From: Terracidiphilus sp.
Lineage (GTDB): Bacteria; Acidobacteriota; Terriglobia; Terriglobales; Acidobacteriaceae
Reading direction: 5' to 3'
NCBI GenBank assembly: GCA_050010795.1
Contig: JBEKKI010000008.1
Coordinates: forward strand, 38,222 to 102,221
Length of the DNA stretch: 64,000 nt
This document shows, in pieces, positions 2,633 to 63,498 of the stretch; the first letter of the stretch is position 1, and the number at the start of each line of letters is the position of its first letter. The notes beneath the pieces are model-generated. The model did not search any database, was not told the origin of the DNA, and saw only the letters and a list, made by a program, of their open reading frames with translations. Both the position numbers and the translations under genes were made by a program.

Positions 2633-2645
2633 TCACTCCAAATCG

Positions 2646-2680
2646 GCTTGCCTGTCCCGGCCTTACCGGGGCGGGCAAGC
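2646..2680. terminator. GC-rich hairpin between convergent genes
   Basis: gcttgcctgtcccgg ... ccggggcgggcaagc. No clear U tract. Confidence 0.5.
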
Positions 2681-2720
2681 GCCCGCCTCGCCCGCGAAGG
2701 ATTCTGCGGGGGACTTTCGT

Positions 2721-47100: not shown

Positions 47101-47254
47101 GCAGTCCGGCCTGGACGCTGATCGTCGGAAAATCCACCTGCGGCAGCGGCGCCAGCGGCAGCACCACGAACGCAATCGCGCCCACGATGGCTACGGCAGC
47201 CGTGAGCAGCGTAGTGCCCACGGGGCGCCGGATGAATGGCGCCGACAGGTTCAT
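44105..47254 (-). CDS. mdtC: RND transporter permease, MdtC-like
   Basis: FIRRPVGTTLL, GFVVDDAIVVMENI, GIVKKNAIMMIDF, RFRPIMMTT. Confidence 0.92.
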   Translation of the reverse strand: MNLSAPFIRRPVGTTLLTAAVAIVGAIAFVVLPLAPLPQVDFPTISVQAGLPGASAQIMAASVATPLERQFSHIAGITEMTSSSSLSSTNITMQFDLSRNIDGAARDVQAAINAARTYLPANLPSNPSYRKVNPADSPIMLVSLTSDKYEVTKLYDLASTILAQKLSQIQGVGQVGVQGAATPSVRVEVNPTKLESFGLTLGGVRSVLSLQNSHEPRGQFSNNGVSEDILTNDQISEAADYRPLIVGYHNGAAVRLSDVADVEDSTQNLRSAGYVDGRRGVVLVIFRQPGANIIQTVDRVKAQLPFLEAVMPQGIKTTVVLDRTTTIRASVNTVEKTLVGSVCLVILVVFVFLRSPRATLIPSVAVPVSLIGTFAMMYLLGYTLDNLSLMALTIATGFVVDDAIVVMENITRHLEAGMEPFAAALQGAQEIGFTVFSISMSLIAVFIPILMMGGIIGRLFREFAVTLSTAILISMVISLTTTPCMCAHVLRAHKEGEKHNWLYRASEKMFDGMISIYRHSLLWVLDNPGLTLVVLLLTIALNGLVIYRIPTGFFPQQDTGVIMGGLQGPQDASFPFMSFSTLSYVNIVKADPAVAHVMAYTGSGNGGFMFVALKALGTKCKESAPNCDERQTSAMDVINRLRPKMNRLPLATGILQPAQDLRIGGRGSNALYQYTIQSDNIDDLSHWGPILYQNMQRLPDLTDVNTDQQNGGLQEMLNYDRITAARLGQTPSSLNSSLCSAFCQSEVSVIYTQLNQYYVVMEVAPQYWQDPSDLNNIYFTTNRSASAGLNAMAPLATVMKQSTNTTPLQVPHTGLFPSATVSFNLKSGASLSDATREVTQMEQRLGMPSSVRGFFAGTAQAYQDSLSSEKYLVATALLAVFIVLGILYESLVHPLTIISTLPSASVGAMLALMLFHIDLNVISIIGIILLIGIVKKNAIMMIDFALQAERNEGKTTREAIFEACLLRFRPIMMTTMSAICGALPLAFGTGTGSELRRPLGITIVGGLLLSQALTLYTTPVIYLMMDRLRLRALGRTHDALPSTAEGATS

Positions 47255-50200: not shown

Positions 50201-50565
50201 TCCGAAGGAAGGAACGTCTGCCCGCCGTTGATCGACGACTGCACCTCTTCTTCGGCAACGTCGAGGCCGAGCGAGAGGCTGAATTGAAGAACGATGACCG
50301 AGACGCCGCCCGCGCTGGTCGACGTCATCTGGCTCAGCCCCTGCATCTCGCCAAACTGGCGCTCCAGCGGCGCAGTGATCGTCGTCGCCACCACGTCGGG
50401 GCTCGCCCCAGGATAAAAAGTCACCACCTGGATCGTCGGATAGTCCACCTGCGGCAGGGCCGACACAGGCAGTTGAAAGAATGCAACCAGTCCCGCAAGC
50501 AGAATTGCGGCCATCAGAAGCGACGTTGCGACCGGCCGCAGAATGAATGGTCGCGATGGACTCAT
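47251..50565 (-). CDS. mdtB: RND transporter permease, MdtB-like
   Basis: MSPSRPFILRPVATSLLM, LPQVDYPTIQV, GFVVDDAIVMIENI, RFRPIMMTT. Confidence 0.93.
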   Translation of the reverse strand: MSPSRPFILRPVATSLLMAAILLAGLVAFFQLPVSALPQVDYPTIQVVTFYPGASPDVVATTITAPLERQFGEMQGLSQMTSTSAGGVSVIVLQFSLSLGLDVAEEEVQSSINGGQTFLPSDIPVPPVYTKTNPADAPVLTLAITSDSLPLSQVEDMVDTRLAPRLSQLNGVGMVSISGGQKPAVRIQVNPVALSAYGLNMEDVRTALTQASVNSAKGNFDGPRQDYQIDANDQITSPDDYKNVVIAYSNGAPVFVKNVANVLSGVENSKQAAWMDMTPAVILNIQRQPGANTITVVNAIQKVLPQLEANLPASIKVTTLTDMTTSIQSSVHDVEFELMLTIVLVVMVIFLFLRSLRATIIPSVAVPLSLIGTFAVMYLLGYSLDNLSLMALTISTGFVVDDAIVMIENISRFLESGMPPLEAALTGAGQIGFTIMSLTVSLVAVLIPLLFMGDVVGRLFREFAITLAVTIVISAVVSLTLTPMMCSRILRHKPKEQEGRIYQASERAVNGLIAFYGRTLKVVLRYQPITLLVAVATLVLTIVLYIEIPKGFFPVQDTGVIQGISQASQSISFNAMSEKQRELAQTILQDPAVESLSSFIGADGINTTLNSGRISINLKPIEERHISASDVIRRLQKNLSQVHGMRLYMQPVQDITVDDRVSRTQYQYTLEDPDTDELNSWTDKFTAQLEKLPELEDVATDQQTGAKAIQMSIDRVTASRLGIAPTTVDNTLYDAFGQRQISTLYTQLNQYHVVLEAAPEWQQDPSKLGDLYIQSNASSGATGAGAATSFSSSASASAGSNALTTSVRYTPSSQALSAPASVLARGATGVGSPNTASSSAGTNAIPLSAFTQVHDTTEALSINHQGQFPSVTVSFNLAPNASLGTAISDIEKVVKNLHFPASLQSDFQGTAASFRNSLSNQALLILAALVTVYIVLGVLYESFIHPVTILSTLPSAGVGALLALIVCRQDLNAVGIIGIILLIGIVNKNGILIVDFALEAERQRGMDSTEAIYEASVLRFRPIMMTTMAALLAGIPLAAGTGLGSELRRPLGIAMVGGLILSQLLTLYTTPVIYIFFDRLGQRMMGHHLSRTARAEAKPGTENA

Positions 50566-51803
50566 GGAGTGGCCCCGCTCGCTGAGATCGGAATCGTCAC
50601 CTTCGAGATCACGATGTCTGATCCGTCCATCAGCTTCTGGAAGCTGCTGTTTGCCACCACGTCTCCGGGATTGATCCCCGTTACCGCAGTGTTGCCTCCG
50701 TCGGAGATTCCCGACTTTACGGTCTTCATCGCCGCCTTGTTGTTCTGGATCAGGTAAACGAAGTCAGCTGCGCCGTTGTGCTGGATCGCTGAAGCAGGAA
50801 CGAGCGTCTGGTTATCCAGCGTCTTCACCAGCAGGCGCGTATTCACAAATTCATTGGGGAAGAGCATTCCATTCGGGTTGCTGAATTCCGCGCGCAGCTT
50901 CACCGTCCCCGTCACCGTGTCGATCTGGTTATCCACGGTGATTAACCGCCCCTTTGCCAGAAGCGTCTGCTGCGTGCGGTCATATGCCTCCACCGTCAGC
51001 GGCTTGCCGCCGCGCATCTGTTCCAGCACTTCCGGCAGGTTGTCTTCCGCCAGCGTGAAGATCACGGTGATCGGCTGGATCTGCGCAACTGTCAGCAGCG
51101 GCGTGCTCGAGTTGGCCGTCACCAGGTTGCCCGGATCCACCAGCCGCAATCCCACGCGCCCGTCGATCGGAGAAGCGATGTGGCAGAACGCCACTTGAAC
51201 TTCGTCATACTGCACGTTTCCCTGGTCGTTCTTCACGGTGCCTTGATTCTGCAGCACCACCTTCTCCTGGTCCTCCAGCGTTTGCCGTGGGATCGCGTTC
51301 TTCGCCCACGCATCCTGGTAGCGTTTCAGGTCCATCTGCGCTTCGGCCAGCAGATTCTGGTCGCGATCCAGCGCGCCTTGCGCCTGCGCCAGTTGCGCCG
51401 CGTAAGGCCGCGAGTCGATATCGATGAGCGGATCGCCTTTATGAACGCTCTGCCCCTCGCGATAGTGGACAGCCGTGATCACGCCCGTCACCTGCGCGGT
51501 GATGGTGTCGAGGTTCGTCGGTGTCACTGTTCCGATGGCGTCAAGATAAACGCCGATGGAGCCCGCCTTGGCCGTGGCCACCGTAACGGGTACGGGCCCT
51601 CCCATTGCGGCCCCGCCTCGGCGAACGCCTCCCGCGCCCGCGGTGGCAGATGCGCTCGCGCTATGCTGCCTCCACACCCACACGAACAGCAGCGCAAAAA
51701 GCAGGAGAATAATCACCCAGATCCAGCGGTGGCGGCGTTTTTTTGTGGAATCTTCGGGCGCTTGCCCGGCGGCAGGATGCGATGCAAACAAAGGTTGATC
51801 CAT
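50562..51803 (-). CDS. mdtA: RND membrane fusion protein, MdtA-like
   Basis: TM anchor, SPIDGRVGLRLVDPGN, DNQIDTVTGTVKLRA. Confidence 0.92.
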   Translation of the reverse strand: MDQPLFASHPAAGQAPEDSTKKRRHRWIWVIILLLFALLFVWVWRQHSASASATAGAGGVRRGGAAMGGPVPVTVATAKAGSIGVYLDAIGTVTPTNLDTITAQVTGVITAVHYREGQSVHKGDPLIDIDSRPYAAQLAQAQGALDRDQNLLAEAQMDLKRYQDAWAKNAIPRQTLEDQEKVVLQNQGTVKNDQGNVQYDEVQVAFCHIASPIDGRVGLRLVDPGNLVTANSSTPLLTVAQIQPITVIFTLAEDNLPEVLEQMRGGKPLTVEAYDRTQQTLLAKGRLITVDNQIDTVTGTVKLRAEFSNPNGMLFPNEFVNTRLLVKTLDNQTLVPASAIQHNGAADFVYLIQNNKAAMKTVKSGISDGGNTAVTGINPGDVVANSSFQKLMDGSDIVISKVTIPISASGATP

Positions 51804-52101: not shown

Positions 52102-52200
52102 TCATTTTCGCAAAATCGACCCGGCTGCCATCGCATGGTAAACCCCGCCATCGACCACAGCGATCCCGTTGATCAGCACATGCTCGACGCCCGCCGGATT
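52102..52200 (-). pseudogene. C-terminal 32-codon remnant of an amidohydrolase (D-aminoacylase-like)
   Basis: Not in the ORF track. Translates NPAGVEHVLINGIAVVDGGVYHAMAAGSILRK*, matching the P-GI-HVLVNG-VV-DG---G--LR tail of that family. No start codon and no catalytic barrel. Confidence 0.7.
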
Positions 52201-53170
52201 ACGCAAAATCCAGGGAAGTCCTTCGCCAGGGGGAGACGATGTGGGTACCTCCATTGCCGATTACCGCACTCGCTACGTTCTCCACGGAGGTGATAATGCA
52301 CTCCTCGCCTCGGTTTTCGAGGAAGTCGATTGCCGCCTGGATTTTCGGCCCCATCGACCCCGGTGGGAATTGGCCTGCCGCCAGATACTCGCGCGCCTGG
52401 TCCATGGTGATCGTGTCGAGCCATTTCTGGCTGGGCCGGCCATAGTCGAGCGCTACGCGATCAACTGATGTAACAATGACGAGCTTGTGAGCGCGCACGT
52501 GCGTCGCCAGCATGCTTGATGCCAGGTCCTTGTCGACAACGGCTTCCACACCCACTAAACGATCGTCTTCCCAGGCCACCGGAATCCCCCCGCCTCCGCA
52601 GGCGATCACGACGACGCCGGCGTCGAGCAGCGATGAGATCGCTTCGGCCTCTAGAATTTGCATCGGGAGTGGCGAAGGCACGACGCGACGGTAGCGTCCC
52701 GGAGAGACTTCGCGCATGATCCAGTCTGGCCTGTCGCTGCGGATGCCGGCCAGCTCGCTCGCGTCATAAAAAGACCCGATCGGCTTGCTCGGATGCTGGA
52801 AGTCCGGGTCGTCGCGATCCACGAGCACCTGGGTGATCAGCGTAGCCACTTCGCGCTTGATTCCCTCGCGACGGAACAACTCGCAAACCAGCCGCTGGAT
52901 CATGTAGCCCATGCCGCCCTGGCAATCGGCGTCGCAGGTGTCGAGCGGCAAGCGCGGAACGCGCCGCTCGCCCTCCTCGACGCGAATCAGGATGTTGCCG
53001 ATCTGCGGTCCGCTGCCGTGGGTGATGGCGATTCGTGAACCGGCGTGGAACAGGGGCTTGAGATGCTCGAGCGTCTCCGCAGTGTGGGCAAACTGCAAGG
53101 GAATGGTGCCGGGTTCGCCGGGCCTGGTAATGGCGTTACCGCCCAGGGCGATCACAAGAGTTTCGGTCAT
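52199..53170 (-). CDS. arcC: Carbamate kinase
   Basis: IALGGNAI, THGSGPQIG, QGGMGY, RRVVPSP, CGGGGIPV, EAVVDKDLAS, FPPGSMGPKI. Confidence 0.96.
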   Translation of the reverse strand: MTETLVIALGGNAITRPGEPGTIPLQFAHTAETLEHLKPLFHAGSRIAITHGSGPQIGNILIRVEEGERRVPRLPLDTCDADCQGGMGYMIQRLVCELFRREGIKREVATLITQVLVDRDDPDFQHPSKPIGSFYDASELAGIRSDRPDWIMREVSPGRYRRVVPSPLPMQILEAEAISSLLDAGVVVIACGGGGIPVAWEDDRLVGVEAVVDKDLASSMLATHVRAHKLVIVTSVDRVALDYGRPSQKWLDTITMDQAREYLAAGQFPPGSMGPKIQAAIDFLENRGEECIITSVENVASAVIGNGGTHIVSPWRRTSLDFA

Positions 53171-53174
53171 GGTC

Positions 53175-54203
53175 TTAAGATCCTGTCATCTCGTAAACAA
53201 CTTCTTGGTCCGACATCGTCAGTGCCATGATCGCCTTGGCGGTATGCAGGCGGTTTTCCGCTTCCTGGTACACCACAGATTGCGGGCCATCGATGACATC
53301 GTCCGTCACCTCGTTGCCCCGATCGGCGGGCAGCGGATGCATGTACAGAGCATTCTCCGCAGCCAATTTCATGCGCTCGTTGTTGCAAATCCAGTGCCGG
53401 TATCCCTCGGCGATCCGCAGGGACTCCTTGGGGTTCGTTCCCATGGTGTCGAGACAGCCCCAGCTCTTGGGAATCACGATGTCAGCGCCGCGAAACGCGT
53501 CGTCCATGTTGTCCACGATCTCGAACTTGGTTCCGGCGCGCCGCGCGTTCTCTCGCGCCGCCTCCACCGTCTCCGGCATCAGCGCGTACTCGGGTGGATG
53601 CGCCAGCACCACGTCCAGTCCAAAGCGCGGCATCAACATGATCAGTCCTTGCGGCACGCTGAGCGGCTTGGCGTAGCTCGGCGCATACGCCCACGATACC
53701 GCCAGCTTGCGTCCGCTCAGGTTCCGTCCGAGTTTCTCGCGGATTGTCATCAGGTCGGCCAGCGTCTGGCAGGGATGGTCGATGTCGCCCTGCATATTGA
53801 TCACCGGCACATCCGCCCAGCGCGCAACTTCGCGCATGTACGCGTTGCCCTCGCCCGGAATCAGGTCGTGACGGATGGCGATCGCGTGCCCGTAGCTGGA
53901 GAGAATGATTCCTGTGTCCTTCGCGCTTTCGCCATGCGAGACCTGCATGACATCGGTGGTCAAAAAATGGGCGTGGCCGCCAAGCTGCGTGATTCCCGCC
54001 TCAAACGAGTTGCGCGTGCGCGTGGATTTGTCGAAGAACATCAGAAAGATGGTCTGATCGGGCAAATAACGATGCGGAACGCGCCCTTTGAACTTGCGCT
54101 TCAAATCGGCGGATACGTCGAGCAGGATTTCGATCTCTGCTTCGCTGTATTCTTCCGTAGTGATGTAGTCCTTGCCCTTAAAGAGCGCCTTTCTCGTTTC
54201 CAA
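53175..54203 (-). CDS. ygeW: YgeW-like knotted carbamoyltransferase
   Basis: KSTRTR, HPCQTLAD, MHPLPADRG, and the YgeW-type loop SWAYAPSYAKPLSVPQG. Confidence 0.82.
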   Translation of the reverse strand: METRKALFKGKDYITTEEYSEAEIEILLDVSADLKRKFKGRVPHRYLPDQTIFLMFFDKSTRTRNSFEAGITQLGGHAHFLTTDVMQVSHGESAKDTGIILSSYGHAIAIRHDLIPGEGNAYMREVARWADVPVINMQGDIDHPCQTLADLMTIREKLGRNLSGRKLAVSWAYAPSYAKPLSVPQGLIMLMPRFGLDVVLAHPPEYALMPETVEAARENARRAGTKFEIVDNMDDAFRGADIVIPKSWGCLDTMGTNPKESLRIAEGYRHWICNNERMKLAAENALYMHPLPADRGNEVTDDVIDGPQSVVYQEAENRLHTAKAIMALTMSDQEVVYEMTGS

Positions 54204-54236: not shown

Positions 54237-55463
54237 TCAGCCATTCTCGCCTTCGAGCGTCGTGACGTACGCCAGGGGGAAGGCAGCATAGAACTGCGCC
54301 GCTTCCACCAGGTGGCGGATCGGGACGCGTTCGATGACACTATGCGCGACGTCTTCTTCACCGGGACCGAAGCCGATGGTCGGCACGCCCATCATTCCCA
54401 TCGAGCCGACGCCGTTGGTGCTGAAGGTCCACTTGTCCACAACTGGATCGGCGTTGTGGAGCGTTCGATACGCCGCCACGGCCGAGCGCACGAGCAAATG
54501 GTCTTCTTCGAGCACCCACGTTGGATAGTACTTCTGCATCGGATACGTGAGTCCGGTATAGCTGGGCGTCTCGTACTGCAACACCTCGATCTCCGCGCCT
54601 TGCGCCGCCGGCAGGGCTTTCACCTCGGCGACCGCGCTCTCGAGCGTCTCCCCGGCGGTCAGCCGGCGGTCAAGATGGATGGAGCATGCGCCCGGCACCG
54701 CGCACAGGGAAGGAGACATCGAGCGAATCTCGGTGACGGCGATTGTTCCCTTGCCGAGAAACGCATCGTCGCGCAAACGCGTGTTCAACTCCTCGATCTG
54801 CGCGATCATCGGGACTATCTTGTAAATCGGATTGTCGCCGCGCTCCGGCGCGCTGGCATGACACGAACGTCCGCGTATGTGAACCTCGATCTCCATGCGT
54901 CCGCGGTGTCCGCGGTACACGCGCAGATTGGTTGGCTCCGTGAGCACTACGCAGTCCGGCCGGATACCGTCCTCCTTGAGAATGTAGACCCACGCCAGGC
55001 CGTCGCAGTCTTCTTCCTGCACCGATCCCACGATCCACAAAGTGTAGTCGCCTTCCAGTTCCAAATCCTTGATCATCTTGCCCGCGTAAACCATGCTGGC
55101 CATGCCGGCGCGTTGATCGCTGGCGCCGCGTCCGTAGATGAAACCGTCCTCCACTTTGCCCTTGTACGGGTCCCAGGCCCATTCCTTCGGATCGCCAACG
55201 CCGACGGTGTCGGTGTGCGCGTCCATCATGATCACGTGTTTGCCTGAGCCGATGCGTCCCAGCACGTTGCCTATGGCATCAATGCGGATTTCGTCGAAGC
55301 CCACGCATTCCATCTCCTGCTTGATGCGCTGAACCACGGGACCTTCGTGGGAACTTTCGCCGGGAATGGCGACTAGGTCGCGCAGAAAGCGGACCATGTC
55401 CGCTTCCAGCGCGTTTGCGGCGGCGAGTAAACGGGCGGAGTCAATCGTAGTTTTATCAGGCAT
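54237..55463 (-). CDS. ygeY: YgeY-family M20 hydrolase
   Basis: MDAHTDTVG, GRGASDQRAG, VQEEDCDG, RGHRGRMEI, KWTFSTNG, GFGPGEE. Confidence 0.92.
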   Translation of the reverse strand: MPDKTTIDSARLLAAANALEADMVRFLRDLVAIPGESSHEGPVVQRIKQEMECVGFDEIRIDAIGNVLGRIGSGKHVIMMDAHTDTVGVGDPKEWAWDPYKGKVEDGFIYGRGASDQRAGMASMVYAGKMIKDLELEGDYTLWIVGSVQEEDCDGLAWVYILKEDGIRPDCVVLTEPTNLRVYRGHRGRMEIEVHIRGRSCHASAPERGDNPIYKIVPMIAQIEELNTRLRDDAFLGKGTIAVTEIRSMSPSLCAVPGACSIHLDRRLTAGETLESAVAEVKALPAAQGAEIEVLQYETPSYTGLTYPMQKYYPTWVLEEDHLLVRSAVAAYRTLHNADPVVDKWTFSTNGVGSMGMMGVPTIGFGPGEEDVAHSVIERVPIRHLVEAAQFYAAFPLAYVTTLEGENG

Positions 55464-55492
55464 GTTGATGACCTGCTGTTCGCGTTCTTGAT

Positions 55493-58078
55493 TCAGCACG
55501 GTTGTAATGCTCCTTTCTTGTTGCGACTGCGGCTGTAAGGCGTGTCGGCGAGCGGCAGGCTCGTGCGCAGCTTTCCGTCCCGCTGCCAATACGCGCACGC
55601 AATGGCCGGCGCCGTCGGAATGCTCACAATTTCGCCGATGCCCTTGGCGCCGTACGCCAACTCGGCCCGGTTCTTCTCGATAATCCGGCACTCGATCTCC
55701 GGCGTCTCGGTCGAGCGCAGAAGGCCGATCGTTCCGAACTTGACTGCAGGTGCGCCATTCTTTACAGCGAACTCTTCGGTCAGCGCATAGCCCATCCCCA
55801 TCACCACGCCGCCTTCGATCTGCCCCTCCACGCCATTCGGATTGATGGCCCGCCCTACGTCGTGCGCTGCCACCACCTTCATCACTTTGCCTGCCTCGTC
55901 AAGCAGCACCACCTGCGTCGCGTATCCGTACGATACGTGGCTCATGCGGTGCGGCTTGTCGCTCGTCATCGGGTCGGTCACGCAGTCGTACTCGCCGTGG
56001 AACTCTTGGCCCTCCAATTCCGCCAGCGCGTGACGGTTCAACTGCCGCCTAAGCTCGAGCGCCGCCCTTCGCGCCGCCTCGCCCGTAATCGTTGTCTGCC
56101 GCGAAGCAGTGCTGGTGCCGCTGTCCGGCGTCACGCTGGTGTCAGGCGCATGCACCGTGAGCATTGACTTGTCGACGCCCGCCGTTTCCGAGACAATCTG
56201 CAGCACCACCGTCGCGATCCCTTGACCCATGCACGCCGCGCTGGTCGAGATCGTCACCCGTCCGCCCTCCACTTTCAGCTTCACGCGGCCTACGTCCTTC
56301 ACCCCCACGCCCTTGCCTGTGTTCTTGAACGCGCACGCAATCCCCGCGTCGGGATGCGCATCGATCACGTCCTTCACGGCGAGCAGTGTCTCCTTCAGCG
56401 CCGTCCCCTCATCGGCGATCTGCCCGTTTGAAAGCACGCCGCCCGCCTCGATCGCGTTGCGGTAACGAATCTCCCACGGCGAAATTCCTGCCGCGTGCGC
56501 CAGCAGATTCAGGTTGCTCTCCATCGCGAAACACGTCTGTGTCACGCCGAACCCGCGCATCGCGCCCGACGGAATGTTGTTGGTGTAGATCGCCCGTCCC
56601 TCGATGTCGACATTCTCGATCCGGTACGGTCCAGCCGCGTGCGTGCACGCCCGCTGCAGCACCGGCCCGCCCAGCGACGCATACGCTCCCGTATCTGCCA
56701 CAATCCGCACCCGCGCCGCGGTCAGCTTGCCGTTCTCATCGCACGCCGTCGTGCATTCAATCTCCATCGGGTGCCGCTTGGGATGCACGCGCAGGCTCTC
56801 ATCGCGGCTCAGGGTCAGCTTCACGGGCCGTCCGCTCTTCCAGGCCAGCAGCGCCGCGTGATGCTGAACCGACATGTCTTCCTTCCCGCCAAACCCTCCG
56901 CCAACGAACTTGCTAACGACCCTCACCTTCTCGCCTTCCACTCCCAGCGTCCGCACAATCTCGCGATGATCGTCGTACACGCTTTGTCCCGCGGTATACA
57001 CCGTCAGCGATCCGGGCGCTCCCGGCACGGCCAGCGCACTCTCCGGCTCCAGAAACGCATGCTCCTGCCGCGGCGTGGAATAGCGCTGCGTCACCACATG
57101 CCTGGCCGCAGCAATCGCCCGCTCCGCATCGCCCCGCTTCAACACCGTCGTCGCCAGCACATTTCCTTCGAGATGCAGCTGCGGCGCTCCCTCAGCTAAT
57201 GCCGCCTGCGGTGAAAGCAGCGGCTCGCGCTCTTCGTATTCCACGCGGACAAGCTCGATCGCCTTCCTCGCCGCCTCCTTCGTTGTTGCCGCCACCAGGG
57301 CGAGCGCATCGCCCACGTATCGCGTCTCTTCTCCTTCGGCAATCATCACCGGCCAGTCGTAGACCACGTGCCCCAGCATTCGCTCGCCCGGCACGTCGCG
57401 CGCCGTCAGCACAATTTCAACGCCGGGCAGCGCCCGCGCCGCCGCCGCATCGATCCGCTTCACCAGCGCCCGCGGAAACCTCGCCCGCAGCACGGCGCCA
57501 TGCAACATGCCCTCCACGTGCATGTCATCGACAAATTCGCCCGTCCCCAGCAGCTTCTCTTTTGCTTCCGCACGCACCGTGCGCTCGCCCACGCGCGCTC
57601 CCGCCGCCTCCACGTCATGCACCCTGCCGTTGGCCAGAGCCCCCGCAGCCAGTTGAATCGCCCGCTCCACCTTCGCGTATCCCGTGCAGCGGCACAGGTT
57701 GTAGCGGATCGCCGACTTCACCTCCGCCGCTGTCGGCGCGGGATTCGCGTCCAGCAAAGCCTTCGCGCTCATCACCATGCCCGGCATGCAGAATCCGCAC
57801 TGCACCGCGCCCACTTCGCCGAAGGCCCACGCATACACCTCGCGCTCCCGCGGCGAAAGCCCCTCCACCGTCATCACCGATTTCCCGTGTACCCTGGCCA
57901 CAGTGAGCGTGCACGCGCGTGCCGCCTTGCCGTTCACGATCACGGAGCACGACCCGCACACTCCGTCGCCGCATCCGTTTTTGACTGAAGTCAGGCGCGC
58001 GTCCTCGCGCAGGTATTCGATCAGACTCTTGTCCGTCTCTGCCGCGGCCTCCCGCTGGTTTAGCGTGAAGCGGAACAT
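55493..58078 (-). CDS. Single-chain molybdenum hydroxylase (2Fe-2S plus Mo domains), selenium-dependent xanthine dehydrogenase type
   Basis: CGDGVCGSC, VQCGFC, CRCTGY, QEHAFLEPE, GGGFGGKED, AMRGFG, GAKGIGE. No FAD domain. Confidence 0.9.
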   Translation of the reverse strand: MFRFTLNQREAAAETDKSLIEYLREDARLTSVKNGCGDGVCGSCSVIVNGKAARACTLTVARVHGKSVMTVEGLSPREREVYAWAFGEVGAVQCGFCMPGMVMSAKALLDANPAPTAAEVKSAIRYNLCRCTGYAKVERAIQLAAGALANGRVHDVEAAGARVGERTVRAEAKEKLLGTGEFVDDMHVEGMLHGAVLRARFPRALVKRIDAAAARALPGVEIVLTARDVPGERMLGHVVYDWPVMIAEGEETRYVGDALALVAATTKEAARKAIELVRVEYEEREPLLSPQAALAEGAPQLHLEGNVLATTVLKRGDAERAIAAARHVVTQRYSTPRQEHAFLEPESALAVPGAPGSLTVYTAGQSVYDDHREIVRTLGVEGEKVRVVSKFVGGGFGGKEDMSVQHHAALLAWKSGRPVKLTLSRDESLRVHPKRHPMEIECTTACDENGKLTAARVRIVADTGAYASLGGPVLQRACTHAAGPYRIENVDIEGRAIYTNNIPSGAMRGFGVTQTCFAMESNLNLLAHAAGISPWEIRYRNAIEAGGVLSNGQIADEGTALKETLLAVKDVIDAHPDAGIACAFKNTGKGVGVKDVGRVKLKVEGGRVTISTSAACMGQGIATVVLQIVSETAGVDKSMLTVHAPDTSVTPDSGTSTASRQTTITGEAARRAALELRRQLNRHALAELEGQEFHGEYDCVTDPMTSDKPHRMSHVSYGYATQVVLLDEAGKVMKVVAAHDVGRAINPNGVEGQIEGGVVMGMGYALTEEFAVKNGAPAVKFGTIGLLRSTETPEIECRIIEKNRAELAYGAKGIGEIVSIPTAPAIACAYWQRDGKLRTSLPLADTPYSRSRNKKGALQPC

Positions 58079-59466
58079 TTTGCATGCTCCTCTTGAACGG
58101 CCGGCCGGTGTGCGCAAATCTTCTCGTTATACTCGCGCACCTTGGCGTATTGCGCGTCCCAAAAGCTCTGGCTGCGCATCGAGTCGAGAAACTCCTTCGT
58201 GTAACCGAACTTCAGCCAATCGTTTTCCTTTTGCTTGAAGAGCCGCTCTTTCGTCTCCGCCTTGCGAAAGTCAAAGACCTCGTCGCTTGACGCGTCGAGA
58301 AAGATGTCGCTCGCCCAACGGTCCAGCACCGTTGGTGTCAGCTCCAGGTAGCGGCCCTCCAGGTCGCGCAGCACGGAGTGGTAACGGTCAAACCCATCCG
58401 TTGCCACCGTCACCACGTTGTCCCCTGGGCCCAGCCGCAGATATTTCGCCAGCTTGATCGCGCCCAGCACGTTGCACACGCCCGACGGCCCGAACAGTTC
58501 CCGCAGTCCCAGCGCAAACTCCCGTTCCACGCCCATCCGCACCATGGTCTCCAGTCCGTCGTGGAAGATCTTCACGCCCTGCACCGTCTCTTCGTCCCTG
58601 ATCAGAATCACGAAGTCGGTATTGAGCACGTTGTGAATCAGCGTGCACATCTTGTCGCCGATGCCCTCGATGCGATGCTGCCCGCGGCCTCCGGTCGCCA
58701 GCGTGGAGCACTCATACGGCTCCAGTGCGGCCACCTTCGCCTCTGGAAACATCGCCTTGATCTGATCGCCCGCTGCAATCGTCCCCGCCGAGCCCGGCGC
58801 CGAGACAAAACCCGCGATCCGCCCGTTGCCCACGCCCTTTACCGCATCAGCTGCGCTCCCGCCCGTGACGTGCCGGTGAAACCGGTAGTTCGGGAACAGC
58901 TCGAATTGCGCCAGCGCCTTGTTTTTGGGGTTCTTCATCAGCTCGCGCGTTTTTTCGAGCGTCAGGATCACGTCCGACTCCGTGCCCGGCGTCAGCTCCA
59001 GTTCTCCTCCGTACTTCCTGATGCGCTCGTAACGCTCCTTGCTCATGTTGTCCGGCATGATCACGATCGCGCGGAAGCCCAGCAGCTTCGAGATGTACGC
59101 GGTCCCAATGCCGAAATTGCCCGTCGACGGCCCCAGTATCGTGTGCTCGCCCGGCACGATCTCTCCATCCACCAGCGCTTCCATCAGCGTCGAGTACGCC
59201 GCGCCTACCTTGTGCGAACCGGAAGGAAATCGGTTCCCGAGCATCACCACCACGTTCGCGGCCACGCCCGTCAGCGCCGAGGGCAGCACCACCTTCCGCA
59301 TCTCGTTGGCCGCATCGCGCCAGTTGATGTTGAACAGATTGATCGGATCGAGCTCGTCCTTGTCGAGCGCCTCAAGCGCCCTTGCGCGCACGCTCTTATC
59401 GATCAATCCCGGGTTGAGCATCTCGTCGTAACTGGGACCCATCGGAACTTTCGCCATCGTTCTCAC
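58060..59466 (-). CDS. Fold-type-II PLP enzyme (cysteine-synthase-like) of unknown function
   Basis: PSGSHKVG (PLP Lys), STGNFG, PGSAGT phosphate loop, HRIEGIG. C-terminal extension of roughly 90 aa. Confidence 0.82.
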   Translation of the reverse strand: MRTMAKVPMGPSYDEMLNPGLIDKSVRARALEALDKDELDPINLFNINWRDAANEMRKVVLPSALTGVAANVVVMLGNRFPSGSHKVGAAYSTLMEALVDGEIVPGEHTILGPSTGNFGIGTAYISKLLGFRAIVIMPDNMSKERYERIRKYGGELELTPGTESDVILTLEKTRELMKNPKNKALAQFELFPNYRFHRHVTGGSAADAVKGVGNGRIAGFVSAPGSAGTIAAGDQIKAMFPEAKVAALEPYECSTLATGGRGQHRIEGIGDKMCTLIHNVLNTDFVILIRDEETVQGVKIFHDGLETMVRMGVEREFALGLRELFGPSGVCNVLGAIKLAKYLRLGPGDNVVTVATDGFDRYHSVLRDLEGRYLELTPTVLDRWASDIFLDASSDEVFDFRKAETKERLFKQKENDWLKFGYTKEFLDSMRSQSFWDAQYAKVREYNEKICAHRPAVQEEHAKCSASR

Positions 59467-59547
59467 TTTCCCTTCCTTCTATCCGACCTAAATCCTTAAA
59501 TCGCAGTGGGTGCCACAGGTCTCGATTTTGAGACCTGGGTTATAAAG

Positions 59548-60804
59548 TCAACTCGCCGCTGCCGCAGCCACCGCTTCCCGAACCTCATCCATCTCCGGCC
59601 GCACCGCAATCGGGCGGCCCACGGCGCGCATCGCGCTTTGCACGTCCTTCAATCCATTCCCCGTCATCACCAGAACCGCGCTCTCGCTGTGGCCTATCAC
59701 GCCCGACGCGACGGCCCGCCGCACGCCCGCCGCACAAGCCACACCCGCGGGTTCGCCAAACACGCCCGTTCTTCGTGCCACGAGCGTCATCGCTTCAAGA
59801 ATCTCTGCGTCCGATACCGCGATGAACGCGCCGCCCGACTCGTTGACGGCGCGCATGCCTTTGGCAAAGTTCCGCGGATGCCCCACGGCGATCGAATCGG
59901 CAAGCGTGTTCCCCTCACATGGCGTGAGCGCGCTTCGATCGCGCCACGCCGTAACAAACGGCTGGCAGCCCTCGGCCTGCACTCCCAGAACACGCGGCAG
60001 GCGCTCCAGAATCCCCAATCGGCACATTTCCCTCAGCCCCGACCACACGCCGCCGATCGTGCATCCATCGCCCACCGATACCACCACCCAATCGGGAAAT
60101 CTGCCGTCCCCGATCCGCGAAAACTGCTCCGCCATCTCCAGCGAAACTGTCTTCTTGCCCTCGATCAGGTATGGGTTCACGGCGCAGTTGCGGTTGTACC
60201 AGCCGAACTCCGCGCTGGCATTCATGCACAGTTCCCATGCCTCGTCGTATGTGCCCTGCACCTGGAAAACTCGCGCTCCGTACACCAGCAGTTGCGCCAC
60301 CTTGGCCTCCGGCGCGCGTGCCGGAACAAAAATCGTCGCCGCAATCCCCGCTGCCGCCGCCATGCCTGCCAACGACGACGCTGCGTTGCCTGTCGACGCG
60401 CACGTCACCTGCGCCGCCTTCCGCTCCAGCGCCTTCACCACGCCCAGCGCGCTCGCGCGATCCTTGAACGACGCCGTCGGGTTCCGTCCCTCATCCTTCA
60501 CCCAGCACCGCGCCACTCCCAATTCGCTCGCCAGCCGCGGCGCATCGTAGAGCGGTGTCCAACCCACCTGCAGGTGCGGAATCAACTCCGGCGACGCCAC
60601 GGGCAGCAGCGGCAGATAGCGCCACATCGAAAGCTCGCTATTTCCCTTGAGCGTGTCCGCATTCAGCTCCCGCCGCACCGCTTCGTAGTCGTACTCCACA
60701 TCCAGAATGCCCTCGTGATATCCGCAGGCAGGGCAGTAGTATTCCGCCTCCAGTGTCGAGTACGTTCGCCCGCAATGAATGCATCTGAGTCCCGTAACGT
60801 GCAT
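59548..60804 (-). CDS. Threonine-synthase-like PLP enzyme with N-terminal Zn ribbon
   Basis: CIHC/CPAC, VGWTPL, NPTASFKDR, ASTGNAASS, SVGDG, EPAG, TGNGLKD. Confidence 0.85.
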   Translation of the reverse strand: MHVTGLRCIHCGRTYSTLEAEYYCPACGYHEGILDVEYDYEAVRRELNADTLKGNSELSMWRYLPLLPVASPELIPHLQVGWTPLYDAPRLASELGVARCWVKDEGRNPTASFKDRASALGVVKALERKAAQVTCASTGNAASSLAGMAAAAGIAATIFVPARAPEAKVAQLLVYGARVFQVQGTYDEAWELCMNASAEFGWYNRNCAVNPYLIEGKKTVSLEMAEQFSRIGDGRFPDWVVVSVGDGCTIGGVWSGLREMCRLGILERLPRVLGVQAEGCQPFVTAWRDRSALTPCEGNTLADSIAVGHPRNFAKGMRAVNESGGAFIAVSDAEILEAMTLVARRTGVFGEPAGVACAAGVRRAVASGVIGHSESAVLVMTGNGLKDVQSAMRAVGRPIAVRPEMDEVREAVAAAAAS

Positions 60805-60850: not shown

Positions 60851-61945
60851 TTACCGAGGCATCGTGATCGCCCGCAGCTTGCAGCGCGTAATGCACAGCC
60901 CGCACTTCGCGCACTTCTCCTCGTCGATTTCCACGATCCTCGCGTTCTTGTCCATGCGAATCGCGCCATACCCGCAGCTCTTCTCGCAGATCCCGCAAAG
61001 AGCGCAGTGCTCCATATTCACTTTCGGCGCGGTCTCCATGTGTGGTGCGCCGCATTGCCGCATCATGCGCACCGTGAGCCCGCTGATCTCGTCCACTGAC
61101 TTGTAATCATGCTCGTCGAGAAACTCATTCAGCTCGCGAGCGATCCTCCCGTACACCGTCGGCCCGCGCAGAATCGCCTCCGTGCACACCTCGACGGCCA
61201 GCGCGCCTGCCATCAGCATCTCCGCCGCGTCGCGCCCGTTGCTGATGCCGCCCACGCCGACAATCGGAATCTTCACCGCCCGCGCCGCGTCGTACACGCA
61301 GCGCAGTGCCAGCGGCTTGATCGCAGTGCCCGACAGCCACCCGAACCCGTCCTTGCTCCCCATCAGCGGCAGCCCGGTTTCGATGTCGATGCTCAGGCAC
61401 GGCCCGAATGAGTTGATCATCACCAGCGCATCCGCGCCCGCATCCTCCAGCGCCAGCGCCAGCTCCTGGATGTTCGGGTGCGGGCTCAGCTTCATGAACA
61501 CCGGCACATCCACCGCTTCCTTGGCCGCGCGCAGCGCATCGATGATCGGCCCGATATTCGTTCCCACATAGTGCGTCGAAAGCTCCAGCGCATCGGCAAA
61601 CGGCTTCACCATGGGCGCCAGCTCCCGGATCTGCCTGGCCGTGTACCCCAGGCCCACAATCACCGGCAGGCCCGTCGCCCGCGCCAGCTTGTACTCGGAT
61701 TCGATCCACTGTTCTTTGGGTAGCTCTGACCACAGTTCGGCGTTCAAGAATCCGCCGCGAATCTCCGCCATGCATGGCTGCGGCACCTCGGCCGGGGCGG
61801 CGGAAATGGTTTTGGTCACGAGCCCGCCGGCGCCGCCGCTCGCAGCCGCCTCGAGCGCTGCGCCGTCTTTCGAAGGCGGTCCTGCCGCAGGCAGAATCGG
61901 ATTCCTGAATTCCAGACCGCAGATATTGACGCGTAGATTTGCCAT
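60851..61945 (-). CDS. PreA/DHODH-like FMN TIM-barrel protein with C-terminal 2x[4Fe-4S]
   Basis: FRNPILPAAGP, VTKTI, MKLSP, LSGTAIKPLALR, GVGGIS, CALCGICEKSC and CAKCGLCITRC. Confidence 0.88.
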   Translation of the reverse strand: MANLRVNICGLEFRNPILPAAGPPSKDGAALEAAASGGAGGLVTKTISAAPAEVPQPCMAEIRGGFLNAELWSELPKEQWIESEYKLARATGLPVIVGLGYTARQIRELAPMVKPFADALELSTHYVGTNIGPIIDALRAAKEAVDVPVFMKLSPHPNIQELALALEDAGADALVMINSFGPCLSIDIETGLPLMGSKDGFGWLSGTAIKPLALRCVYDAARAVKIPIVGVGGISNGRDAAEMLMAGALAVEVCTEAILRGPTVYGRIARELNEFLDEHDYKSVDEISGLTVRMMRQCGAPHMETAPKVNMEHCALCGICEKSCGYGAIRMDKNARIVEIDEEKCAKCGLCITRCKLRAITMPR

Positions 61946-62154: not shown

Positions 62155-63498
62155 ATGGCGGAGTCTGCCAATTTGCTGGTCGGCAACGGCCGCGTCATCA
62201 CCCACGACGACGGCCAGCCCTTCCTCGAGAACGGCTGCATTGCCATCCAGGACGGCCTCATCGCCGCCGTCGGCCCCACCGCCGAAATCGTGCCCGCCAA
62301 TCCCGACGCGCGTTTTCTCGATGCGCAGGGCCGCATCATCATGCCCGGCCTTATCAATGCTCATACGCATCTCTACAGCGCCTTCGCCCGCGGCATGGCG
62401 CTCAAGGATGATGCCCCCGGTAATTTCATGCAGATTCTCGAGCGCCTCTGGTGGCGGCTCGACAAAGCTCTCACCCTCGACGACGTCTACTGGAGCGCCA
62501 TGGCCGGCATGGTCGAGTGCATCCGCAACGGCGTCACCACCGTCTTCGACCACCACTCCAGCCCCCACGCCGTTCGCGTCAGCCTTTTCCGCATCGCCGA
62601 GGCCGCGCGGCAAACCGGCCTCCGCGCCTGTCTCTGCTATGAAGTCTCCGACCGCGACGGCGCAGAGATTGCCACGCAGGGCATCGAGGAGAATCGCGCA
62701 TTCCTCGAGACCTGCATCCGCCGGCCTGAAAGCCTCATCCGCGGCCTCTTCGGCCTGCACGCCTCGTTCACTCTGGGCGACGCGACTCTTGCCCAATGCC
62801 GCGAGGCTGCCGCCGATCTCGGCGCCGGATTCCACGTGCACACCGCGGAAGCTCTTTCAGACGTCGACCATTGCCTCCGCGAGCACAACATAGGAGTAGT
62901 CGAGCGCTGGCGCCAGCGCGGCATCCTCGGCCCGCACACGCTCGCTGCGCATTGTGTCCACGTCAGTGAGCGCGAAATCGATCTCCTGCGCGAGTCAAAA
63001 ACCGCGGTCGTGCACAACCCGCAATCCAACATGGCCAACGCGGTTGGCTGCGCGCCGGTCCTCGAAATGATGCGCCGCGGCACCCGCGTCGGCCTCGGCA
63101 CTGACGGCTACACCGCGGACATGTTCGAGTCTATGAAGGCTGCCTCGCTTCTCCAGAAGCATCACTCCGGCGATCCGCGCGCCGCATGGTCCGAGCCGCC
63201 GCTCATGCTCTTCCGCGAAAACTCGGGCCTAGCGTCGGAACATTTCGGCCAGCCCGTCGGCACGCTCACGCCCGGCGCTGCCGCCGACATCATCCTCGTC
63301 GACTACGACCCGCCCACGCCGATCGACGCCGCCAACCTTTCCGGCCACATCTTTTTTGGCCTGACGGGCCGCGCCGTCTCCACCACCATCGTCGGCGGCC
63401 GCATCCTGATGCACAACCGCAAACTCCTCACCATCGACGAAAGCGAAGTGATGGCCCACGCCCGCGCCGCCGCCGCCGAAGTCTGGAAGCGGTTCTAG
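62155..63498 (+). CDS. ssnA: Amidohydrolase SsnA
   Basis: MPGLINAHTHLYSAFARG, LWWRLDKAL, DHHSS, LCYEVSDRDG, FGLHASFTL, GFHVHTAE, HNPQSNMANAVG, GTDG. Confidence 0.93.
   Translation: MAESANLLVGNGRVITHDDGQPFLENGCIAIQDGLIAAVGPTAEIVPANPDARFLDAQGRIIMPGLINAHTHLYSAFARGMALKDDAPGNFMQILERLWWRLDKALTLDDVYWSAMAGMVECIRNGVTTVFDHHSSPHAVRVSLFRIAEAARQTGLRACLCYEVSDRDGAEIATQGIEENRAFLETCIRRPESLIRGLFGLHASFTLGDATLAQCREAAADLGAGFHVHTAEALSDVDHCLREHNIGVVERWRQRGILGPHTLAAHCVHVSEREIDLLRESKTAVVHNPQSNMANAVGCAPVLEMMRRGTRVGLGTDGYTADMFESMKAASLLQKHHSGDPRAAWSEPPLMLFRENSGLASEHFGQPVGTLTPGAAADIILVDYDPPTPIDAANLSGHIFFGLTGRAVSTTIVGGRILMHNRKLLTIDESEVMAHARAAAAEVWKRF

Follow-up and report, generated by a model that had tools for sequence, protein, structure and literature searches.

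A CysK-like PLP enzyme, paired with a ThrC-like protein, that may take the place of YgeX in uric-acid gene clusters

What does a CysK-like PLP enzyme do among genes for the breakdown of uric acid? The question is raised by a gene, here called CysKL, in a stretch of 64,000 nucleotides from Terracidiphilus sp. (the window). The original prediction left the enzyme unassigned. It suggested either a second lyase or isomerase for 2,3-diaminopropionate (DAP) or ureido intermediates, or the mobilisation of sulfur or selenium for the molybdenum centre of a neighbouring enzyme.

The CysKL gene and its protein

The open reading frame runs over 58060..59466 on the minus strand and encodes 468 aa from a GTG. 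Translation almost certainly begins at an ATG, at 59457, giving 465 aa, because GGAAGGGAAAG precedes that ATG and the homologs begin with MAKIPFGPTY. The stop codon, TAA, occupies 58060-58062. Thousands of homologs, and identities of 67-87% across phyla, mark the gene as real, so the predicted frame stands with its start moved from 59466 to 59457. Its features are the following.

58060..59457, minus strand: CysK-like PLP enzyme (CysKL), 465 aa; an open reading frame matching Pfam PALP only
59290..59457, minus strand: N-terminal extension, aa 1-56, helical; outside every CysK alignment, pLDDT mostly >90
59209..59211, minus strand: codon for Lys83, which forms the Schiff base with PLP (motif SHKVG); aligns with the lysine of CysK SVK
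59116..59127, minus strand: S111-T-G-N114, the substrate-carboxylate ("Asn") loop; aligns with CysK TSGN
58780..58794, minus strand: G222-S-A-G-T226, the PLP-phosphate loop; aligns with CysK GTGGT
58096..58374, minus strand: C-terminal extension, aa 362-454, helical; pLDDT 71-98
58060..58104, minus strand: clade-specific tail of 14 codons and stop; read-through of the former spacer into xdhD
58087..58092, minus strand: GAGGAG ribosome-binding site of the molybdenum enzyme, read from the sequence, within the CysKL tail (codons Glu-Glu)

The three PLP motifs named in the original prediction are all present: SHK83VG, STGN and GSAGT align with SVKDR, TSGNT and GTGGT of CysK, respectively. Lys83 is nearly invariant across the family, the STGN loop is invariant in 15 orthologs and the phosphate loop is likewise invariant in the orthologs, while Ser325 lies at the pyridine nitrogen. 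Because this catalytic set of the CysK type is complete, CysKL is expected to bind a beta-substituted alpha-amino acid and to form an alpha-aminoacrylate.

CysK structures and sequences align to residues ~57-361 only, in agreement with the predicted N- and C-terminal extensions that cysteine synthases lack. An AF2 model (pLDDT 90.8 overall) confidently shows both extensions as helices. Neither aa 1-56 nor aa 362-454 has a match in Pfam or the PDB. The C-terminal extension is kept in distant long relatives, where W414, G418 and W433 are invariant.

CysKL scores far under all CysK, CysM, SbnA and CBS cutoffs, with 138.4 bits for TIGR01139 (cutoff 350.95), 138.6 bits for TIGR01136 (cutoff 344.15) and 94.7 and 86.5 bits for the CysM models (cutoffs 394-413). 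Among curated families and solved structures none covers the extensions, and the best curated model still falls below its cutoff. The enzyme is thus rightly called unassigned, and at 138 bits against cutoffs of 344-351 it is no ordinary cysteine synthase. Since its orthologs remain so similar across phyla, it forms a separate orthologous group.

That CysKL is an ordinary CysK or CysM, an O-acetylserine sulfhydrylase whose extensions are decorative, would account for two facts: the top curated models and structures for CysKL are those of CysK, and JGI pipelines label its homologs "cysteine synthase". This reading has next to no chance of being right, given 138 bits against cutoffs of 344-394, an identity of 25-31%, about 150 additional conserved residues and a catabolic context. 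An assignment as cysteine synthase is accordingly disfavoured by scores, extensions and neighbourhood alike.

A variant uric-acid cluster with a ThrC-like partner

CysKL is surrounded by the following genes.

62155..63498, plus strand: SsnA aminohydrolase, divergent; NF005540, 621 bits against a cutoff of 444
60851..61945, minus strand: UacX-like reductase of the DHODH/PydA type with a 4Fe-4S ferredoxin domain; Pfam DHO_dh and Fer4
59548..60804, minus strand: ThrC-like PLP enzyme (ThrCL), 418 aa, with N-terminal CxxC..CxxC; matched by thrC models
55493..58078, minus strand: molybdenum enzyme of the XdhD/Se-dependent XDH type with fused 2Fe-2S domains; TIGR03311, 1341 bits against a cutoff of 830, and Pfam domains
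54237..55499, minus strand: YgeY M20 hydrolase (ureido-group hydrolase), a gene call of 420 aa; TIGR03526, 581 bits against 321
53175..54203, minus strand: OTC-like carbamoyltransferase (YgeW analogue); Pfam OTCace_N/OTCace, 40% identity to E. coli YgeW
52199..53170, minus strand: carbamate kinase (YqeA analogue); TIGR00746, 351 bits

A reductive (2,8-dioxopurine or yanthine) pathway for uric acid was recently described in E. coli, C. difficile and C. sporogenes (PMC12507026; bioRxiv 10.1101/2025.04.24.650524). Read from its sequence, the cluster of the window is a variant of that pathway. Both hold XdhD-type, UacX-type (UacX being defined as PF01180; PMC12507026), SsnA, YgeY, carbamoyltransferase and carbamate kinase genes in one cluster. 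The XdhD product is probably a urate/2,8-dioxopurine oxidoreductase.

The window departs from the published pathway in several ways. Its carbamoyltransferase is OTC-like and scores below the YgeW cutoffs, in contrast to the knotted YgeW. HyuA hydantoinase, present in some related clusters, gave no tblastn match in the 64-kb window. YgeX was not found there either, the sole match of E. coli YgeX being a weak one (25% identity) to the ThrC-like gene. Finally, there are two additional PLP genes, CysKL and ThrCL, mentioned in neither PMC12507026 nor bioRxiv 10.1101/2025.04.24.650524.

ThrCL lies above the threonine synthase cutoffs (207.8 against 167.1 for TIGR00260, 304.2 against 303 for NF006050) and matches Aquifex ThrC with 222 bits. 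It keeps the lysine of the SFKDR motif and the STGN loop of ThrC, SFKDR being found in 68 of 68 partners. The GNAGN loop has become GDGCT. Arg160 of T. thermophilus ThrC, which binds the phosphate of O-phosphohomoserine, is replaced by Leu in the ThrCL of the window and in 67 of 68 partners, and both ThrC structures in the alignment have Arg at this position. With the phosphate-binding Arg missing, a phospho-homoserine substrate is disfavoured. ThrCL was also rejected as a DAP lyase by family: it matches ThrC models and only weakly resembles YgeX. Unlike ThrC, it is located in uricolytic clusters of many phyla.

Downstream of CysKL, the ATG of the molybdenum enzyme lies at 58076-58078, ahead of the CysKL stop, so that the two genes overlap by 19 nt. 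The last codons of CysKL do cover the ribosome-binding site and start of xdhD, as had been noticed. The residues concerned, 455-465, have pLDDT <50 and are predicted to be disordered.

The same overlap occurs in 13 of 29 related loci (xdhD directly follows CysKL in 35, and its start can be placed in 29 of these). In the remaining loci CysKL ends at ~451-458 aa, mostly 5-26 nt ahead of the xdhD start, and in forms of 451 aa the stop lies 23 nt ahead. The 14-aa tail is the translated spacer and ribosome-binding site, the ancestral stop having been lost. The overlap is therefore a stop-codon loss in one Acidobacteriaceae clade and no feature of the family. Elsewhere the gene after CysKL is HyuA, YqeA or YgeY, or CysKL has a ThrC-like gene as its only companion. 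For the suggested coupled expression with Xdh, this leaves an overlap that is real but confined to a single clade.

Neighbourhoods and mutual exclusion with YgeX

Neighbours within +/-10 kb were counted in 80 species-level genomes with a CysKL homolog. In 70 of the 80, ThrCL lies no more than 10 kb away in the same orientation, and in 45 it is adjacent; XdhD was found in 53, YgeY in 51 and SsnA in 46. YgeX was found within +/-10 kb at 0 of the 80 loci. Far from occupying unrelated contexts, 69/80 homologs adjoin uricolytic genes.

At the other 11 loci, where ThrCL usually accompanies CysKL, no gene within 10 kb is uricolytic; adjoining genes include, for example, those for citrate lyase or putative proline catabolism (read from N-termini only). 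More distant long relatives (44-46%) likewise stand beside a ThrC-like gene, and distant relatives also occur near F420 biosynthesis/CoA transferase and radical SAM genes.

In Bacillota the gene order is YgeW-CysKL-YqeA-ThrCL-YgeY, while in E. coli it is YgeW-YgeX-YgeY. CysKL thus fills the operon slot of YgeX, after YgeW and before YgeY. One operon without Xdh combines CysKL and ThrCL with UacY, an M20 hydrolase and an ABC transporter for amino acids. Amino-acid-type binding proteins adjoin the pair in two loci.

A second, independent sample consisted of 80 metagenome loci anchored on YgeY and ranked by similarity to the YgeY of a CysKL-type cluster. YgeX only was present in 26, CysKL in 32, both in 1 and neither in 21. 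Among the 37 loci flanked by 4 kb or more on each side, 13 had YgeX only, 19 CysKL only, 0 both and 5 neither (Fisher p = 2.4e-6). After removal of E. coli near-duplicates the counts were 6/19/0/5 (p = 7.8e-4); the loci of both samples, 80 genomes and 80 metagenome loci, are phylogenetically non-independent. A second CysKL subclade (34-40% identity) excludes YgeX in the same way. CysKL and ThrCL together are mutually exclusive with YgeX, which suggests that they serve the same metabolic step.

A role in sulfur or selenium supply was the other proposal of the original prediction. In such a role CysKL would mobilise sulfur or selenium for the labile ligand (Se/S) that the molybdenum hydroxylase carries, for instance by forming or splitting selenocysteine, and would stand in for SelD, YqeB and YqeC. 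In its favour, CysKL lies directly upstream of the "Se-dependent XDH"-type gene and overlaps it, selD, yqeB and yqeC are absent from the 64-kb window, as had been stated, and YqeC is adjacent in Moorella-type loci. Yet the overlap is an accident of one clade, and the strongest linkage is to ThrCL (70/80) and to ureido-cleaving enzymes, whereas 27/80 neighbourhoods have no XdhD. Of the selenium-related genes, only YqeC (10/80) and YqeB (2/80) occur nearby at all, SelD being found at 0/160 loci, and the operon just described has the pair, a transporter and hydrolases but no molybdenum enzyme. Exclusion of YgeX is also left unexplained, and the proposal is now highly improbable.

The pair could instead be a general catabolic or biosynthetic module for amino acids (such as D-/L-serine, threonine or a phospho-amino acid) that is often co-located with purine genes. 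The 11/80 loci free of uricolytic genes, the two loci with binding proteins and the other contexts of distant relatives would all fit. This explanation is quite unlikely, as it accounts neither for the exclusion of YgeX nor for insertion among YgeW, YqeA and YgeY, and ThrCL lacks the Arg aligned to the phosphate-binding Arg of ThrC.

Proposed function and known systems

CysKL is distinct from CysK, linked to ThrCL and to uricolytic genes, and mutually exclusive with YgeX. It probably carries out the last step of the uric-acid pathway by a route not yet described. That it does so jointly with ThrCL, the two replacing YgeX in the conversion of DAP to pyruvate and ammonia, is given an even chance; substrate, product and division of labour are all deduced. 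Of the original prediction, the suggestion of a lyase or isomerase that acts on DAP or on ureido intermediates thus has the best support, although not as a "second" DAP lyase, because the cluster of the window has no YgeX.

According to this proposal, UacX, SsnA, XdhD, YgeY, the OTC-like carbamoyltransferase and carbamate kinase of the window would deliver DAP, which CysKL and ThrCL would then convert to pyruvate and ammonia. The module would take the place of YgeX at the end of the reductive uric-acid pathway in many anaerobes. One of the enzymes may racemise a D-configured DAP while the other eliminates ammonia; alternatively, the two may form a heteromer. The pathway intermediates have been proposed to be D-configured (PMC12990295), which provides a rationale for a pair of racemase and lyase.

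Some observations run against a replacement of YgeX. One enzyme should suffice for the elimination of ammonia from DAP. Uricolytic genes are missing within 10 kb at 11/80 loci, and 5 well-flanked YgeY loci carry neither YgeX nor CysKL. The sequences nearest to CysKL are those of CysK and beta-cyanoalanine synthase, which are beta-replacement enzymes rather than eliminating lyases.

Such a beta-replacement is the core of another, unlikely explanation, in which ThrCL alone degrades DAP and CysKL acts on the same C3 skeleton, salvaging carbon with no release of pyruvate (DAP or aminoacrylate would, for example, react with sulfide to give cysteine, or with water to give serine). Two enzymes would then have two jobs, and the nearest relatives of CysKL in sequence and fold are CysK, beta-cyanoalanine synthase and S-methylcysteine synthase. 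Homologs of ThrC are able to use C3 substrates, and cysteate synthase appears in the profile scores. A purely assimilatory enzyme, however, is not expected to follow a catabolic cluster in 69/80 loci or to exclude YgeX. CysKL also sits in the slot of YgeX after YgeW and is more conserved than ThrCL (mean p-distance 0.19 against 0.28).

CysKL might also act one step earlier, on albizziin (2-amino-3-ureidopropionate), so that urea or carbamate would leave the beta-carbon directly and some of the YgeY/YgeW reactions would be skipped. The reductive pathway does pass through albizziin, an alpha-amino acid (PMC12507026), and among CysK homologs O-ureido-L-serine synthase (3x43, 75 bits) handles a ureido substituent. 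The window, lacking HyuA, may encode a pathway that differs in other respects too. This is very unlikely, since most clusters keep YgeY with a carbamoyltransferase or UacY, so that both ureido groups have dedicated enzymes, and no urease is nearby.

Returning to the joint replacement of YgeX, a bolder and rather doubtful version would make CysKL and ThrCL a previously unrecognised two-component PLP system, possibly heteromeric, with new enzymology of vicinal diamino acids and an ancient alternative to DAP ammonia-lyase. Examples would be a stereoinversion of D-2,3-diaminopropionate that is coupled to the elimination of ammonia, or a channelled transfer of aminoacrylate. If this is true, anaerobic purine catabolism would have a second branch, defined by this system and widespread in the environment.

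Among known systems, YgeX/DpaL (2,3-diaminopropionate ammonia-lyase) belongs to the same fold-type II superfamily. CysKL is not its ortholog, scoring 23.3 bits for TIGR03528 (cutoff 532) and 25.8 bits for NF006058 (cutoff 276). YgeX acts alone, whereas two PLP proteins co-occur at CysKL loci.

CysK paralogs of the SbnA and DcsD type combine the CysK fold with chemistry on DAP precursors or ureido substituents. Their matches to CysKL are weak (SbnA 65 bits, 3x43 75 bits), much below CysK itself. Unlike CysKL, they are biosynthetic, ~300-330 aa long and without a ThrC-like partner.

CysK, CysM and plant beta-cyanoalanine synthase share the fold-type II PLP core with CysKL (Foldseek TM ~0.85 to the target; 0.56-0.60 for CysK chains when normalised to the CysKL query). 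CysK and CysKL have in common the PLP lysine, the S/T-G-N loop, a Gln, the Gly-rich phosphate loop and the pyridine-nitrogen Ser, at 25-31% identity. They differ in that SVKDR of CysK is SHKVG in CysKL and GIGAGF is GIGDKM. CysK is a single domain of ~300-325 aa, while the 465 aa of CysKL include helical extensions of 56 aa at the N-terminus and ~95 aa at the C-terminus. Unlike that of CysK, the genomic setting of CysKL is catabolic, with a ThrC-like partner in 70/80 loci.

A reductive urate cluster without YgeX

The window carries a cluster for the reductive (2,8-dioxopurine or "yanthine") uric-acid pathway, which was elucidated only in 2025. The published order of enzymes is XdhD, YgfK or UacX, SsnA, HyuA, YgeW or UacY, YgeY and YgeX, with YgeX converting 2,3-diaminopropionate to pyruvate in the final step (PMC12507026; bioRxiv 10.1101/2025.04.24.650524; commentary PMC12990295). 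Here, a minus-strand operon encodes a UacX-like DHODH/ferredoxin reductase, a ThrC-like PLP enzyme (ThrCL), a CysK-like PLP enzyme (CysKL), XdhD, YgeY, an OTC-like carbamoyltransferase and carbamate kinase. SsnA lies divergently on the plus strand.

Features of the cluster and its surroundings
44105-47254, minus strand: ACR_tran-type large pump
47251-50565, minus strand: ACR_tran-type large pump
50562-51803, minus strand: RND membrane-fusion protein
53175-54203, minus strand: OTC-like carbamoyltransferase, 342 aa, 40% identical to E. coli YgeW, under the YgeW cutoffs
55493-58078, minus strand: XdhD/Se-XDH-type Mo enzyme, TIGR03311 at 1341 bits
58060-59457, minus strand: CysKL
59548-60804, minus strand: ThrCL

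No YgeX, HyuA, YqeB, YqeC or SelD is encoded anywhere in the 64-kb window. The published pathway uses a HyuA-type hydantoinase to open ureidomethyl-hydantoin, whereas the Acidobacteriaceae cluster has none; related clusters of other lineages carry a HyuA-like gene. The lack of selD, yqeB and yqeC, borne out by this search, had led the original prediction to suggest sulfur or selenium mobilisation for the Mo centre. That role is less well supported; YqeC occurs near CysKL in 10 and YqeB in 2 of 80 genome loci. The Mo enzyme itself scores as "selenium-dependent xanthine dehydrogenase", yet selD is found in 0 of 160 related loci.

The carbamoyltransferases also vary. The OTC-like form accompanies the close CysKL clade (63-87% identity), except in about 10 Bacillota loci with YgeW, and the knotted YgeW form is found with YgeX or with the distant CysKL clade. 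The two forms may attack different ureido groups or stereoisomers.

An RND efflux operon (44105-51803) lies directly downstream of carbamate kinase on the same strand. Just past the right end of the window, beyond SsnA, two open reading frames of 405 and 444 aa (1808-3025 and 3264-4598 of locus L001) have no Pfam match; they may be unrecognised components of the pathway or transporters.

Neighbourhoods and the exclusion of YgeX

The best 80 genome loci with a CysKL homologue were compared over 10 kb on either side. ThrCL is present on the same strand in 70 of them and directly adjacent in 45. XdhD is found in 53, YgeY in 51, SsnA in 46, UacX in 39, the OTC-like carbamoyltransferase in 32, UacY in 16 and YgeW in 10. 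The contexts are thus not unrelated ones: in 69 of the 80 loci, one or more uricolytic-type genes lie near CysKL. YgeX was found within 10 kb in none. The Sporomusa carbonis cluster runs SsnA, regulator, UacX, ThrCL, CysKL, HyuA-like, XdhD, YgeY, UacY. One operon, which has no Mo enzyme, is made up of the genes for an amino-acid ABC transporter, ThrCL, UacY, an M20 hydrolase and CysKL.

A second sample of 80 metagenome loci was anchored on YgeY. YgeX and CysKL almost never occur together in it.

YgeX and CysKL at YgeY-anchored loci. Loci were ranked by similarity to the YgeY of a CysKL-type cluster and are phylogenetically related; absence of YgeX refers to 10 kb.
All 80 loci: YgeX only 26, CysKL 32 (27 with visible ThrCL), both 1, neither 21; Fisher p 4.8e-7
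At least 4 kb on each side: YgeX only 13, CysKL 19, both 0, neither 5; Fisher p 2.4e-6
The same, minus E. coli near-duplicates: YgeX only 6, CysKL 19, both 0, neither 5; p 7.8e-4

The single locus with both genes has a 47%-identical CysKL in divergent orientation, cut at the contig end, and many of the loci with neither are short contigs. YgeX and ThrCL occur together in 0 of the 80. A second CysKL subclade, 34-40% identical to CysKL of the window, occupies such clusters too and behaves in the same way (L121, L103, L110, L116 and other YgeY-anchored metagenome loci), and one of its loci has YgeW and YgeY 78-82% identical to those of E. coli. YgeX has thus been replaced far outside the lineage of the window as well.

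The predicted overlap with the Xdh gene is present. The CysKL stop codon (58060-58062) lies 19 nt beyond the ATG (58076-58078) of xdhD, and the xdhD ribosome-binding site GAGGAG (58087-58092) is translated as Glu-Glu within the CysKL tail. Among related loci with xdhD directly next and a placeable start, the identical 19-nt overlap occurs in 13, all of the Acidobacteriaceae clade of the window; in the remainder, CysKL stops at 451-458 aa, mostly 5-26 nt ahead of xdhD. A 23-nt spacer and the 19-nt overlap make 14 codons, exactly the extra tail of CysKL in the window, so the overlap arose secondarily, when the stop codon was lost. The translational coupling proposed with it is plausible in this clade and tells little about function. 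The single metatranscriptome contig on the CysKL gene, of 132 nt, carries no information on co-transcription.

The 90-nt spacer between ThrCL and CysKL contains a perfect palindrome, CAGGTCTC-N6-GAGACCTG (59513-59539), in its only copy in the window. It has no Rfam match, nor did an Rfam scan of 51.5-64 kb give any. The corresponding spacer of 33 related loci lacks it, and it was therefore rejected as a conserved regulator. Its 33-nt core recurs in metatranscriptome contigs from peat whose flanks are unrelated, which suggests a palindromic element that is small and dispersed.

The two PLP enzymes

The reading frame predicted at 58060-59466 is present on the minus strand. Its start is likely the ATG at 59457, giving 465 aa, because a purine-rich ribosome-binding site precedes it and homologue N-termini (MAKIPFGPTY) match. 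The PLP motifs were also correctly predicted: in PDB alignments SHK83VG corresponds to SVKDR of CysK, S111-T-G-N114 to TSGN and G222-S-A-G-T226 to GTGGT, and the CysK Gln is retained, as is the Ser that faces the pyridine nitrogen. With this conserved catalytic set, CysKL would process a beta-substituted alpha-amino acid by way of an aminoacrylate.

That CysKL is a plain CysK is less well supported. Pfam finds only the general PALP domain. The best NCBIfam models are cysK/cysKM, at 138 bits with cutoffs of 344-351; CysM, CBS and SbnA models score lower, and YgeX-type diaminopropionate ammonia-lyase models reach 23-26 bits. An OrtB-type thiolase was considered and rejected, as it is absent among the best 25 of 28 NCBIfam matches.

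The extensions beyond cysteine synthases, another part of the original prediction, are supported by the PDB sequence matches, which are all cysteine synthases (best about 110 bits) and cover only residues ~57-361. An AlphaFold2 model built on an 18-sequence alignment is confident (pLDDT 90.8, pTM 0.91), with residues 455-465 predicted to be disordered. Foldseek matches it to the cores of CysK and beta-cyanoalanine synthase only (25-31% identity; TM ~0.85 target-normalised, 0.56-0.60 query-normalised). The helical extensions, 56 aa at the N-terminus and ~95 aa at the C-terminus, are therefore genuine and ordered, and no solved structure is related to them. Queried separately, neither has a Pfam match, and the C-terminal one has no PDB match.

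More than 7000 database proteins match CysKL, with 79-100% identity among the matches listed, and the only names that sources give to the family are "cysteine synthase" and "pyridoxal-phosphate dependent enzyme". A genome scan found at least 557 stretches encoding a relative in species-representative genomes. The best 80 of the 557 (67-87% identity) belong to Acidobacteriaceae, Negativicutes, Moorella/Neomoorella, Syntrophaceticus, Symbiobacterium and Izemoplasmatales; carriers include peat Acidobacteriaceae, Moorella-type acetogens and syntrophs.

Among 50%-identity representatives, full-length relatives with both extensions are found down to ~30% identity. The distant ones (27-49% identity in the alignment) reach no curated NCBIfam cutoff and have mixed genomic contexts. 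One of 502 aa (P0138; contigs L090/L091) is flanked by F420-biosynthesis genes and by CoA-transferase and luciferase-like (F420-type) genes. This context recalls the F420-dependent Chloroflexota variant in PMC12507026; these contigs have no uricolytic gene.

ThrCL passes the NCBI thrC cutoffs, so annotation pipelines will name it threonine synthase. The PLP lysine and STGN loop are kept, and the N-terminus has a zinc-ribbon-like CxxC...CxxC segment. Arg160 of T. thermophilus ThrC, presumably the residue that binds phosphate, is matched by Leu at the aligned site in 67 of 68 partners and by Arg in both ThrC structures of the alignment, and the GNAGN loop of ThrC has become GDGCT. Judged by these residues, ThrCL is probably not a genuine threonine synthase, and with its place in urate clusters the name is probably a systematic mis-annotation.

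ThrC-like genes also adjoin more distant long CysK-like genes (44-46% identical), one pair with overlapping stop and start, so the pairing is old. The mirror-tree correlation of CysKL with ThrCL (r = 0.87-0.95) is explained by shared ancestry, because YgeY and XdhD give similar values.

Role of the pair

Context, operon position and the exclusion of YgeX suggest that CysKL and ThrCL fill the metabolic slot of YgeX. The pair would then break down 2,3-diaminopropionate, in the simplest case into pyruvate and ammonia. The pathway intermediates have been proposed to be D-configured (PMC12990295), and YgeX is reported to be active on both isomers (PMC12507026); given both points, the pair could reasonably be a racemase-plus-lyase split or a heteromer.

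A role in beta-replacement or salvage and action on albizziin are both less well supported than the YgeX slot, and so is an unrelated amino-acid module.

The find is a non-orthologous replacement in a newly known pathway by an uncharacterised, very conserved enzyme pair, whose function is predicted. Cysteine-synthase-like or threonine-synthase-like genes are not mentioned in the pathway papers or the commentary PMC12990295. One published survey used Pfam PF00291 as a proxy for YgeX and another required a ygeX homologue, so the first would count these genes as YgeX and the second would miss such organisms. A large set of bacteria has a urate cluster with this pair in place of YgeX, and in these lineages the pathway would be complete once the pair has an assigned function. 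The pair would then offer a second choice of enzyme for engineered urate-degrading probiotics, and its role may bear on the D/L stereochemistry of the intermediates. The names "cysteine synthase" and "threonine synthase" are also flagged as systematic mis-annotations.

Several Bacillota have the gene order YgeW-CysKL-YqeA-ThrCL-YgeY, whereas E. coli has YgeW-YgeX-YgeY.
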